Positions 11,474 to 13,610 of a DNA stretch of 64,000 nt are shown in pieces. The notes below the pieces were generated by a model that had not been told where the DNA came from, made no database searches, and saw nothing but the letters and a program-made list of their open reading frames with translations. Numbering within the stretch: the stretch's first letter is position 1; each line of letters starts with the position of its first letter. The DNA lies in sequence record OM386655.1; one strand, 5' to 3'. Origin of the DNA: Escherichia phage vB_EcoM_ESCO10. The translations under genes were made by a program, and so were the position numbers.

Positions 11474-11839
11474 TTAGATATCAAACTCGTTAAGAACTAC
11501 ATCAAAGATTGCTTCAAGATGTTCAGGTTTAGCTCGGTTACTCAGAATATGACGAATCCAAGTTTTAACTAAGAGTTTACGATTATCACCGTTCCAACAA
11601 GGATGAGTGCCTAAATCGCGTTCACGGAAATCATCATCTAGAGCGATTTTAAAGTTGGAACCTTCCTTAGTTATTGAAAGAGTGATACCGTTTTCAAATC
11701 GCATATAAACGTAGTTAGGAGTCATGCACTGCTCGATTTCACATACTGAACCGTTTTCATGTTTCCACAGGCAAATAACTTCAGAAGAACCAGCGATACC
11801 GTTAGAAACATATTTACGTTCGAAGTTGATGTAGTTCAT
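11474..11839 (-). CDS. hypothetical protein (121 aa)
   Basis: Track ORF; RBS AGGA upstream; promoter-like element with inverted repeat at 11873..11913. Confidence 0.5.
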   Translation of the reverse strand: MNYINFERKYVSNGIAGSSEVICLWKHENGSVCEIEQCMTPNYVYMRFENGITLSITKEGSNFKIALDDDFRERDLGTHPCWNGDNRKLLVKTWIRHILSNRAKPEHLEAIFDVVLNEFDI

Positions 11840-11872
11840 TTTATTATCCTTTGGTTTGATTTCGTATTATTT

Positions 11873-11913
11873 GGTACAGGTCTATAATAACACAACCTGT
11901 ACCAAAGTAAAAC
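11873..11913 (-). promoter_or_regulatory. early-type promoter (TTTTAC-N16-TATTAT) with -10 inside a 9-bp inverted repeat
   Basis: GGTACAGGT ... ACCTGTACC flanks the -10 element; upstream of ORF 11474..11839. Confidence 0.35.
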
Positions 11914-11915
11914 AT

Positions 11916-12248
11916 TTATTTCACAACATTCCAATTTTTCATATCAAGTTTACCAACTTTTTTCATCTGAGCAATCAGACGTTCGGCACGCTCACGAGCA
12001 GTAACATAATAGAATTCACCGATTTTGTTTTCTTCAATACGACCTGTAATTACAGTTTTCAGTTCATAAATCCAACCTGTAAAGAAGTTGTGAAGCTCGA
12101 TAGTAAAGGTGAAATCAGTACCCATACCTTCAGTGGTTTCAACTTCAATAATATCACCTTCAACCGCTGTCAGGACCCACATGGTTTCTTGATATTCACC
12201 GTTGAAACATTTAGCTTTAACAGATGCATTCAGGTTTACAGTTTTCAT
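11916..12248 (-). CDS. hypothetical protein (110 aa)
   Basis: Track ORF; RBS GGAG upstream; early promoter at 12290..12318. Confidence 0.5.
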   Translation of the reverse strand: MKTVNLNASVKAKCFNGEYQETMWVLTAVEGDIIEVETTEGMGTDFTFTIELHNFFTGWIYELKTVITGRIEENKIGEFYYVTARERAERLIAQMKKVGKLDMKNWNVVK

Positions 12249-12289
12249 TTTATTCTCCAGTTTGTTTTCGTATTTGTTGGTACAAGTCT

Positions 12290-12318
12290 ATAGTATCATG
12301 CCTACTGGAGAAGTAAAC
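12290..12318 (-). promoter_or_regulatory. early promoter GTTTAC-N17-TACTAT
   Basis: Consensus match on minus strand upstream of ORF 11916..12248. Confidence 0.5.
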
Positions 12319-12369
12319 ACTTTTTTAAAGATACAGAAACAAAAATGGGACTCCGAAGAGTCCCATAAC

Positions 12370-12531
12370 TTATGCCCGAGGCTTACCAAAACGAGAAGCA
12401 TCGTCGCGGATAACAGCACGAGCCCGACGCATAATCTTCTCAACTGTCTGATTGATACGTGAGTTAGACGCACGCTTGTAACCAGCGCGTTTAGAGGTTC
12501 CGTCAACTACTTTAACTTCTTTCTTAGCCAT
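12370..12531 (-). CDS. small basic protein (53 aa), not in ORF track
   Basis: ATG..TAA ORF MAKKEVKVVDGTSKRAGYKRASNSRINQTVEKIMRRARAVIRDDASRFGKPRA; more protein-like than the overlapping TTG-initiated track ORF 12288..12506. Confidence 0.35.
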   Translation of the reverse strand: MAKKEVKVVDGTSKRAGYKRASNSRINQTVEKIMRRARAVIRDDASRFGKPRA

Positions 12532-12826
12532 TATAAAATCTCTTTAAATGAAAATGCAGGACTTATTGGCATTGCCTGCGCAAGCCCTCGAAGGGAACAT
12601 AGGTTTTGGATATTTAACGACAGGATAACCATAAACCTCGTCATCATACCAACCACGACTTAGACAGATAACCTTTTTCTGACGCGTGATAGTACAAAAT
12701 ACATTCAAGAGGTACACCGTAAAACTGTCGGGGTCTTAAAACTATAATGATTCGCAAATCATTAATAAGACAGTTCGACGGCTCCTCGATTTTCTAGCCG
12801 CACTAAGGTAGCGAATCACCTAAAAC

Positions 12827-13075
12827 TTATTTAAGGGTAATAACAAAATGACGTACTGCTTTACGAGCTGCCGAAGCCAAAGGCTTAGCATATTTCAGTT
12901 CATCTTTTGCTTCCAGTTCAGAAGCCAAAGCTGCCTGGACCGGGTTCAGATGTTTGAAATAACGCAGGATTTCCAGTGCTTCGGCTTCAACATCAATAGA
13001 TGCGCCATAGTTTTCGTGACCGTTGTTCCAAGCGTTGCGTTGCAGTTCAAGAGCGTGATTCAGATGTTTGTTCAT
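12827..13075 (-). CDS. hypothetical protein (82 aa)
   Basis: Track ORF; the overlapping plus-strand ORF 12848..13249 is low-complexity and judged spurious. Confidence 0.45.
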   Translation of the reverse strand: MNKHLNHALELQRNAWNNGHENYGASIDVEAEALEILRYFKHLNPVQAALASELEAKDELKYAKPLASAARKAVRHFVITLK

Positions 13076-13218
13076 TTTAGTTTCTCAATTCGAGATAAAG
13101 ATTGGTGGACACGTTCTTCTGAATTTCACTTCCTTTCAGCAAGTCTCTCAGTTGTAGTCCACTGCTTAGAAGGTTGGTCATGTCCCTTTGGAGGTAGTTC
13201 TCCAACTCTTCATATTAT

Positions 13219-13226
13219 TATTTATA
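13219..13226 (-). promoter_or_regulatory. late-promoter-like TATAAATA box (minus strand)
   Basis: Exact T4 late -10 consensus on minus strand just downstream of gene 31; about 140 nt upstream of ORF 12827..13075. Confidence 0.3.
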
Positions 13227-13550
13227 TCACTTATAAAGACACGGAATAGCTTTATAATGACAAGTAACGAATTTCTGTTTAATTTCTTTAGGCTGTTTAA
13301 TACCTAATGCAACTAACGGATGAGGCACGTTAGCAATCTTACCGACAGGAAGTGGGGTCAAATCACCTACTTCACAAAAATCTTCAGGGACATCAGGTCC
13401 TACAGAATAAACTTCACAGAGTTCAGGGATTTCACCTTGATGAAGTTTGCCAATAACGATACCTGATGCAGTAGTTTCTTCATCACCAGCTTGTTTTGGT
13501 TCGGAAACGAGAATAATATATTCTCCGACCGCTTTAATAGGAAGTTCCAT
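13227..13550 (-). CDS. 31: co-chaperonin GroES analogue gp31
   Basis: 107 aa; near-complete match to recalled T4 gp31 (..AVGEYxILVSEP.QAGDEE ... [23 protein letters not shown]). Confidence 0.85.
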
Positions 13551-13581
13551 ATTTAATCCATGTTGTTTTGTTGATAAGATA

Positions 13582-13610
13582 ATAGTACCACATTATTCTT
13601 AAAGCATATT
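13582..13610 (-). promoter_or_regulatory. MotA-dependent middle promoter for gene 31
   Basis: minus strand ataTGCTTTAag - 12 nt - TACTAT, about 30 nt upstream of gp31 ATG. Confidence 0.5.

Follow-up and report, generated by a model that had tools for sequence, protein, structure and literature searches.

The 64,000-nucleotide (nt) stretch of Escherichia phage vB_EcoM_ESCO10 analysed here (record OM386655.1; hereafter the window) carries on its minus strand the genes 31, rIII and 30.9, in this order, and two long gaps between them: gap B, from gene 31 to the lysis-inhibition gene rIII, and gap A, from rIII to 30.9 (Table 1). Both gaps are conserved, present in a single copy and selected for base pairing on the transcribed strand. 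We propose that they are untranslated, folded parts of the messenger RNA (mRNA) that runs from gene 31 via rIII and 30.9 to the terminator at 12345-12366, and that their role is exerted in cis; we give this reading a probability of about 0.55. One module of gap A, M4a, is an undescribed pseudoknot family common to the window and T4. T4 and its relatives belong to the most thoroughly studied viruses; even so, the T4 reference records hold no annotated feature in either gap.

An earlier reading made from the letters alone (the sequence-only reading) had placed an exact late-promoter box at the head of gap B, and TATAAATA is found there without mismatch. The position of this octamer is invariant in 18 of 18 aligned relatives (alignment columns 1-8), and among the more distant T4-like phages examined most also have it upstream of rIII; it is not over-represented in the window (5 copies versus 7.4 expected). 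The late promoters of T4 form the basis on which TATAAATA at 13219-13226 can be taken as a promoter, and by analogy it is presumably used as such late in infection. A late promoter at this place is consistent with the expression of T4 rIII from early, middle and late promoters (PMC9409239).

The predicted late transcript of rIII begins with a leader of three hairpins, and the same architecture was recovered in all 23 distinct relatives that were folded individually: HP1, which begins about 3 nt downstream of the expected start, then, behind 5 nt of spacer, HP2, and finally, behind a U/A-rich spacer, HP3. Pairing in HP1 and HP2 was counted for 13 base pairs in an alignment of 18 phages (A2), where 90.9% of the cells are paired as compared to 74.8 ± 1.6% in shuffled alignments (0 of 500 reach the observed value), and two-sided changes occur at 11 of the 13 pairs. 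When the partner is shifted by 1-3 columns, pairing falls to 35-59%. Taken separately, the seven counted pairs of HP1 are standard in 86% of cells and six of them have changed on both sides, and for the six pairs of HP2 the values are 95% and five. The sequence and length of HP1 vary among phages, with the hairpin retained, and the HP2 stem reads GGTAGTC/GACTACC in T4, GATAGA/TCTATC in Pectobacterium phage PM2 and GGAGA/TCTCC in the related locus L024. The HP1 of the window differs from that of its closest relative, the Dhakavirus VR5 (80% identity over 13101-13200); its apex resembles the apex found in PM2, with covarying stems. Each of the 18 aligned relatives has HP3, with the stem UCUC/GAGA or else CCUC/GAGG, and the hairpin alone is worth -3 to -6 kcal/mol. 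It is also kept in the distant T4-like phages L215 and L218, which retain the minimal three-hairpin plan with an rIII that is only about 66% identical. Folding of both strands and comparison with T4 and relatives across the gene 31-rIII interval, two checks that the sequence-only reading had suggested, both bear out a structured leader: the minus-strand fold is more stable than shuffles (z=-2.41), the plus-strand fold is not (z=-0.50), and the leader hairpins are conserved with covarying stems. The literature searched contains no description of a leader structure for rIII.

Gap A is homologous in 775 phage records and measures 120-398 nt among the 16 phages first aligned and 8-437 nt across all T4-like loci examined. 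In the window its transcribed strand consists of six modules: M1, M2, M3a, M4a, hairpin A and hairpin B. The pseudoknot M4a combines two helices. In the first, P1, GAC(G)AGG (12636-12642) pairs with CCUGUC (12619-12624) to form a stem of 6 base pairs (bp) with one bulge; in the second, P2, GGUU (12627-12630), located in the 11-nt loop, pairs with AACC (12602-12605) about 20 nt downstream. An invariant unpaired GUAUGAUG lies on the 5' side of P1, and the linker is A-rich (CGUUAAAU...AAAA, CGUUAAAUAUCCAAA). The stems themselves are diverse. Among T4-like phages P1 occurs as GAC.AGG/CCU.GUC, GUC.UAG/CUA.GAC, GGC.AGG/CCU.GCC, GAC.UGG/CCA.GUC, GUG.AAG/CUU.CAC and GUGGA/UCCAC, and P2 as GGUU/AACC, UGGUU/AACCA, AGGUU/AACCU, AGUU/AACU, UUAGUAGUU/AACUACUAA, UUGUGAG/CUCACAA, GGUAG/CUACC and GAUGG/CCAUC.

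Two alignments quantify this variation. In A1 (19 phages) 76.2% of the cells are paired, against 64.8 ± 1.8% in shuffles (0 of 500) and at most 47% in slid controls; in A7 (30 distinct phages) the figures are 79.7%, 67.2 ± 1.3% (0 of 500) and at most 50%, with a covariation score of 0.362 versus 0.167. A7 was built by alignment to a covariance model that holds P1 only, and P2, which is outside this model, is paired in 74% of the cells and shows two-sided changes at four pairs, so that both helices covary in the 30 phages. G-U combinations outnumber A-C combinations by 19 to 9. The covariance model finds exactly one M4a per T4-like locus in 317 kb, with the copy of the window at 12593-12655 (74.4 bits, E=8e-12); the T4 reference genome has one at 130604-130666. 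Nucleotide identity within M4a is 69-92% as compared to 59-83% in the adjacent genes, which places its conservation at or above theirs. A degenerate M4a pattern was also scanned over 596 Gb of bacterial genomes and gave 95 matches, close to the roughly 66 estimated by chance; none of the 95 holds both the P1 and the P2 helix, in comparison to 33 of 53 in phage loci.

The remaining modules of gap A behave in a similar manner. M2 is a rod of stacked helices with the layout GAGG / CCGU / CUGUC / UAAUGAUU-ugcg-AAUCAUUA / GACAG / ACGG / CCUC, in which CCGU/ACGG has become CCAU/AUGG in phage e11/2 and CUGUC/GACAG has become UUGUC/GACAA. Its apical stem is the AT-rich palindrome of the sequence-only reading (TAATGATT-cgca-AATCATTA at 12745-12764), two pairs of which are changed on both sides in L025; in STML-198 the apex is lost and the basal helices are retained. 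M3a contains three invariant G-U pairs that are impossible on the opposite strand, and a two-sided change turns it into CUAUCAUG/CAUGGUAG in LF82-3. RNAalifold, run on ten relatives with the layout of the window, recovers M2, M3a and the P1 helix of M4a, with nine pairs that carry two-sided changes. M1 has the stem CGC/GCG in the window, CAC/GTG in T4 and TGC/GCA in L016. In other genera M1 is located between the pseudoknot and E150, a larger element described below. Hairpin A varies as CCCC..GGG, CCCU..GGGG and CCUCU..AGAGG and lies upstream of the pseudoknot in some genera. Hairpin B corresponds to the GC hairpin noticed earlier (GCAGG at 12556-12560, CCTGC at 12575-12579). Since a MAFFT alignment (A3) left its stems out of register, they were extracted by means of their conserved flanks and not by pairing. 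All true copies pair at 5 of 5 positions except that of KAW1E185 (4 of 5), as opposed to about 2 of 5 in shifted registers, and six stems were obtained (GCAGG/CCUGC, GAACUGG/CCAGUUC, GGGAGC/GCUCCC, GGGAAC/GUUCCC, GGUGGAG/CUCCACU and GCGGG/CCUGC). The arms of both palindromes thus vary in a compensatory manner among relatives, for which reason they exceed what chance would produce. As a terminator, hairpin B would have a 5-bp stem, a 14-nt loop and AUUUUCAUUU behind it; the terminator scan made no call, and the U run is displaced in other genera. In the record of phage ATK48 a 10-nt string a short way before the 30.9 start (L004 1511-1520, approximately 12542-12551 of the window) is labelled 'ori type 2 repeat', and no support for an origin was found outside this annotation.

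Several lines of evidence place this RNA on the minus strand and within a longer message. M2, M3a and M4a contain many invariant G-U pairs that are unable to form on the other strand and thus support RNA pairing on the minus strand; in addition, every gene here is encoded on that strand, a scan of 12532-12826 and 13076-13226 for minus-strand promoters of the sigma-70 type was negative, and no terminator is reached before the end of 30.9. No convincing MotA box was seen by eye in the gaps, and none of the T4 middle promoters in the published list falls here. A conserved GTATGAT before M4a was considered as a -10 box and rejected, as transcripts that start there would lack the covarying P1 strand. 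Among known RNAs no counterpart emerged. The search with Rfam covariance models, another check that had been proposed, found no known family in the window; with Rfam 15 the window and 11 related loci gave noise only (10-21 bits against thresholds of 40-66), including a match of L041 to the S15 leader (20.5 bits, threshold 39.5) that we took as chance. ARAGORN reported neither transfer RNA (tRNA) nor transfer-messenger RNA in the window or in six related loci. BLAST found no second copy of the gap sequences in the window. RNA structure in these gaps is not described in the literature searched. Altogether, the initial suggestion that these stretches encode structured non-coding RNA, or else form a long regulated leader, is supported by comparative evidence for conserved minus-strand RNA structure in both gaps.

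In order to judge the coding capacity of the gaps, the transcribed strand of gap A was aligned for 16 and later 39 relatives, and open reading frames (ORFs) were listed in 39 variants of gap A and 18 of gap B. The conserved short ORF that the sequence-only reading had named as the observation speaking against its view was looked for by this comparison, and no conserved frame was found. No reading frame is shared across the 39 and 18 variants, and the most conserved segments hold 1-nt indels. The ORFs inside the gaps of the window (57, 41, 37 and 42 amino acids) matched no family in Pfam or PHROG, and 1-nt indels break or shift them in relatives. Protein-coding gaps were therefore rejected, given frames that are not conserved among relatives and the lack of a family match; both gaps are untranslated and without coding capacity. 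It follows that a genuine micro-protein, for which the 57-residue ORF at 12544-12717 and the 42-residue ORF at 13077-13205 would be the candidates, is extremely improbable. The ORFs are present, several database records annotate 'hypothetical proteins' across the interval, and an open frame of 63 residues is intact in several Dhakavirus genomes; against this, 1-nt indels interrupt the frames in T4, in the ATK48/NRG-P0074 group and in other phages in spite of high DNA conservation, the 42-residue ORF is shortened to 21 residues in the nearest relatives and absent from T4, and there is neither an ATG start nor a convincing ribosome-binding site. The indels that break the frames are compensatory for the P1 helix of M4a: ATK48 is without the bulge, and T4 carries it on the other strand.

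Annotation of this interval is uneven. Many GenBank records place spurious coding sequences over the homologues of gap A (records L002, L005, L007, L009, L010 and L015; GRNsp7 and KMB26), as 'hypothetical proteins' of 33-102 amino acids or even as '1,4-alpha-glucan branching enzyme' ('glycogen branching enzyme'). A T4 clone and phage fPS-2 are annotated with a 72-residue, N-terminally extended 30.9. This extension is out of frame in the window, and the short start of 30.9 (ATG at 12529-12531) is hence the conserved one.

Some observations weigh against a role in cis of both gaps, or against the strength of the structural case. P2 of M4a comprises just 4 bp in the window. The excess of G-U over A-C combinations is modest in gap B (7 versus 5). 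Shuffle controls of the kind used above can be exceeded by related sequences without structure, and since relatedness alone can beat them, the argument rests on the slid controls and on the variety of the stems. On the minus strand, gap A as a whole gains no stability over shuffles (z=-0.56), and the plus strand does better (z=-1.95); of the proposed folding check on gap A, the compensatory changes in individual modules held up, and the whole-gap minus-strand fold did not reach significance, so that the case for gap A is built on covariation. Finally, module order differs among genera, and in L215 and L218 rIII lies just 8-9 nt from a 44-residue homologue of 30.9. The spacer is accordingly not needed for the expression of 30.9, which weakens a purely cis-regulatory reading.

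The reordering of modules deserves closer attention. The window has the order M1, M2, M3a, M4a, A, B. VR5 carries E150 in the slot of M3a, as do many relatives, and in T4 this slot is empty. L016-type phages have the order M4a, M1, E150, A, B; L034 has E150, M4a, A, B; and L194 and L199 start with A and M4a, followed by further modules. More distant T4-like contigs from IMG/VR, to which L215 and L218 belong, include L211, where a terminator and an early promoter (GTTTAC...TATAAT) follow rIII instead, and L210 and L216, where a different gene follows. By its distribution, the long spacer between rIII and 30.9 is thus confined to one part of the Tevenvirinae. The spacer of gap A is an add-on that recombination has built and rebuilt, and the modules have each retained their fold.

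E150 itself, which is not in the window, is an element of about 135 nt (CGGCAAGUGCAUGC...GCUAACGGUGUGCAACAGAUAAGAG) in the rIII-30.9 gap of 407 phage records, which include phages of Klebsiella, Escherichia, Enterobacter, Yersinia, Citrobacter, Serratia and Aeromonas. Examples are found at 131683-131819 of VR5 (L001, KP007359.1) and at about 1235-1370 of L016, in a slot equivalent to 12646-12695. Each genome has one copy, which is never labelled as RNA. From 12 copies RNAalifold predicts 41 pairs, of which 18 show two-sided changes, in a multi-helix junction with a tetraloop hairpin (GAAA in most). E150 has no Rfam match and is a candidate for a new class of structured RNA. A tRNA-like nature, considered in view of a T-arm-like TCGAACCCGGAACC, was rejected as ARAGORN was negative.

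Permuted modules and the phages that lack the spacer make it necessary to take a different view of gap A seriously. Its modules, above all M4a and, in relatives, E150, could be autonomous RNAs, cut out of the transcript or acting within it, that bind a small molecule or a factor of host or phage origin, and the junction would be the site at which they accumulate. Internal structure is indeed kept while order and neighbours change, distant phages lack the spacer with rIII still beside 30.9, and each element is found once per genome and always at this locus. Moreover, the combination of covarying stems and invariant unpaired bases in M4a and E150 is typical of RNAs that bind ligands or proteins, and the GAAA-type tetraloop hairpin, the multi-helix junction and the 18 two-sided pairs of E150 point in the same direction. 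Against autonomy, the scans revealed no promoter or terminator belonging to the modules, there is no similarity to Rfam families or to host sequences that could be mimicked, and the position of M4a directly before hairpins A and B and the start of 30.9 is equally the layout of a cis-regulator. On balance we consider autonomous RNAs the main rival explanation, less probable than a role in cis. A bolder version, which we hold to be rather unlikely, would make the rIII-30.9 junction an 'RNA cassette site' that collects exchangeable autonomous RNA genes, with M4a and E150 as two new phage-specific classes of functional RNA that have a dedicated partner; this partner might be S1 or another RNA-binding protein of the host, a decoyed defence nuclease, or a metabolite. 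The search for host mimicry in E. coli genomes returned just a 45-nt match of 85% identity (E=5e-3) between 12784-12828, which spans the rIII stop and M1, and two plasmids (NZ_CP068036.1 and NZ_JBXSET010000004.1); this may be chance or a phage-derived fragment.

M4a has also been weighed as a riboswitch aptamer for which hairpins A and B would form the expression platform controlling 30.9. Its H-type fold and A-rich linker are features of the small pseudoknot riboswitches as well, and in the window and T4 it is immediately followed by two hairpins, a U-rich tract and the ribosome-binding site of 30.9. In addition, AGGGCUUG (5' arm at approximately 12585-12592) has an alternative pairing with UAAGUCCU around an enclosed GGC-aau-GCC, and in sequences of the window type this alternative is in competition with hairpins A and B. 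This pairing, partly kept in STML-198 and not in L016-type phages, might be a two-state switch or an artefact of structure prediction. In several genera, however, M4a is set apart from hairpins A and B by about 190 nt that hold M1 and E150; no riboswitch family of Rfam matches even at E values up to 10 in a 291-nt search space; the pattern scan of bacterial genomes yielded nothing that passed the structure test (0 of 95); and since the function of 30.9 is not known, no ligand can be guessed. We regard a riboswitch as improbable.

A further possibility is that the gaps matter at the level of DNA, as recombination joints of the PeSL type or as neutral mobile relics in which the hairpins are incidental. 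Mosaicism on a small scale is centred on the gaps. Over most of 11900-13600 the identity of the window to VR5 is 94-100%, with the exceptions of HP1 (80%), the M3a/E150 slot (72%) and the 30.9 gene (78-83%, 12301-12500), and by this measure HP1 and 30.9 of the window come from a different source. The wide range of gap lengths given above would also fit, and PeSL cassettes mediate such shuffling in T4-type phages (PMC2839356). Yet the gaps lack on the coding strand the sigma-70 promoter that is the defining half of a PeSL, their sequences are single-copy, M4a is conserved as well as the neighbouring genes or better, and the compensatory substitutions and G-U pairs indicate selection on RNA pairing. 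A role confined to DNA is thus very improbable.

Table 1. Features of the gene 31-rIII-30.9 locus in the window, in the direction of transcription; position 1 is the first letter of the window.
Feature	Position	Strand	Basis or remark
Gene 31 / gp31, GroES-like head-assembly co-chaperonin	13227-13550	minus	PHROG 931, E=5e-50; Pfam Cpn10
Gap B (gp31 to rIII)	13076-13226		151 nt
T4-type late promoter box TATAAATA	13219-13226	minus	exact match, directly after gp31 stop codon
HP1, GAAG.GTTGG ... CCAAC.CTTC, 5' end of predicted late rIII transcript	13169-13211	minus	minimum-energy fold and alignment A2
HP2, long hairpin closed by GTGGAC/GTCCAC, with inner hairpins	13105-13162	minus	alignment A2
HP3, TCTC-gaatt-GAGA, 3' arm is the rIII Shine-Dalgarno sequence	13083-13095	minus	8-11 nt before ATG 13073-13075
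rIII, lysis-inhibition accessory protein	12827-13075	minus	PHROG 1457, E=6.6e-43
Gap A (rIII to 30.9)	12532-12826		295 nt
M1, small hairpin CGC-U-AC cuua GU-GCG after rIII stop	12799-12813	minus	stem variants in relatives
M2, rod of ~80 nt, four stacked helices, holds the AT-rich palindrome 12745-12764	12709-12787	minus	RNAalifold consensus
M3a, G-U-rich hairpin GUACUAUCACG...CGUGGUUGGUAU	12646-12695	minus	RNAalifold and relatives
M4a, H-type pseudoknot	12602-12649	minus	covariation in A1 and A7; covariance model
Hairpin A, CCCU-ucg-AGGG, then conserved GCUUGCG	12585-12595	minus	kept in relatives
Hairpin B, GCAGG-caaugccaauaagu-CCUGC, then AUUUUCAUUU and 30.9 ribosome-binding site and ATG	12556-12579	minus	flank-anchored extraction
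Gene 30.9, basic protein of 53 amino acids	12370-12531	minus	PHROG 1427, E=8e-28
Intrinsic terminator, end of the 31-rIII-30.9 unit	12345-12366	minus	9-bp stem and T run
30.8	11916-12248	minus	

The 1.3 kb around both gaps match 798 phage records, nearly all of them T-even phages of enterobacteria, with VR5 as the closest match (94% identity), and to judge by these matches the window derives from a Dhakavirus-like T-even phage. Its gp31 is 100% identical to that of VR5 and its rIII protein 89% identical to T4 rIII; for 30.9 no relative was found in Pfam, NCBIfam or PDB. The terminator that closes the unit is annotated at the equivalent place in ATK48, e11/2, SV76 and NRG-P0074. The coordinates that the sequence-only reading had given for its two long non-coding stretches (about 295 and 150 bp) are exact. 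Its statement that typical gaps here are of 0-40 nt is roughly right as regards the median, which is 14 nt in a greedy ORF tiling of the window, and it overlooks several other gaps of 100-240 nt. That tiling had covered both gaps with spurious ORFs and contained no gap of at least 250 nt; once the true genes are considered, no untranslated stretch of the window is longer than gap A. Further along, between 30.7 (11474-11839) and 30.8, a strong perfect hairpin (GGUACAGG...CCUGUACC) at 11857-11923 drew weak matches to microRNA models on both strands. It is probably the conserved stem-loop found in the regulatory region that lies upstream of gene 30 in T4.

As folded parts of the mRNA, the gaps most likely serve to control its stability and translation in cis. 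In gap B, RNA polymerase with the T4-type late sigma factor would start a few bases past TATAAATA, and HP1, at the 5' end of this transcript, would probably shield it against decay of the RNase E type. HP3 would sequester the Shine-Dalgarno sequence of rIII and could in this way damp or gate its translation. Gap A would be an intercistronic spacer composed of independently folding modules that are gained, lost or permuted by recombination among T-even phages; acting in cis, these may shield the rIII message at its 3' end, hold the untranslated stretch in a folded state that would resist Rho and nucleases, and set the level of 30.9 that is made. M4a might in addition be a specific binding site for a protein or a small molecule. 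As its covarying stems surround invariant single-stranded bases, it seems the module most likely to bind such a specific partner.

The outcome is a covariation-backed structure for the late leader of rIII and an undescribed pseudoknot family that T4 shares, and E150 provides a pointer to a larger structured RNA in hundreds of phages that are therapeutic candidates. Post-transcriptional control of rIII, which sets the timing of lysis, and of 30.9 becomes testable, with defined targets for mutagenesis in T4, and the annotation of T-even genomes would improve.

Comparison with known systems helps to define what is new in these elements. The pseudoknot in the gene 32 mRNA leader of T4 is the translational operator of gp32, which spreads over the unstructured A/U-rich tract that follows. 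Like this pseudoknot, M4a is of the H-type, lies in untranslated T-even mRNA, is conserved among T-even phages and has covarying stems; it differs in that it has no sequence similarity to it, is located between rIII and 30.9, and is followed by hairpins A and B and not by an unstructured A/U-rich tract. In the T4 genes e, soc and I-TevI a late promoter lies inside the hairpin that contains the Shine-Dalgarno sequence, and late transcripts lack the inhibitory arm. HP3 resembles these hairpins in the pairing of the Shine-Dalgarno sequence with an upstream CUC/CCUC and in having a late promoter close by, but it is weak, and with its late promoter about 135 nt upstream early and late transcripts both carry it. 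HP1, for its part, recalls the stabilising stem-loops at 5' ends, as in the 5' untranslated region of ompA, since it lies about 3 nt from the predicted 5' end and is kept as a hairpin whatever its sequence; the stabilising effect is a prediction here.

In architecture alone, M4a is comparable to the preQ1-I, SAM-II, fluoride and guanidine-III riboswitches, which are likewise two-helix pseudoknots of about 50 nt with an A-rich loop 3 and invariant unpaired bases. It is set apart from them by the absence of a covariance-model match, by not being found in bacteria in the pattern scan, and by a location that is not always beside a ribosome-binding site or terminator. PeSL cassettes consist of a consensus sigma-70 early promoter and a stem-loop and are repeated many times per genome (PMC2839356; PMC4122927). 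The two gaps share with them the intergenic location, the hairpins and the occurrence at indel or replacement boundaries between close T4-type relatives; unlike them, they are single-copy and have no consensus sigma-70 promoter. Altogether, the late promoter of rIII is already known in T4, and the leader structure, the modular spacer and M4a are absent from Rfam and the T4 records and were not found in the literature searched. The elements are ordinary in kind, being structured untranslated phage RNA, and the family they add is new and resides in the genome of a model organism.

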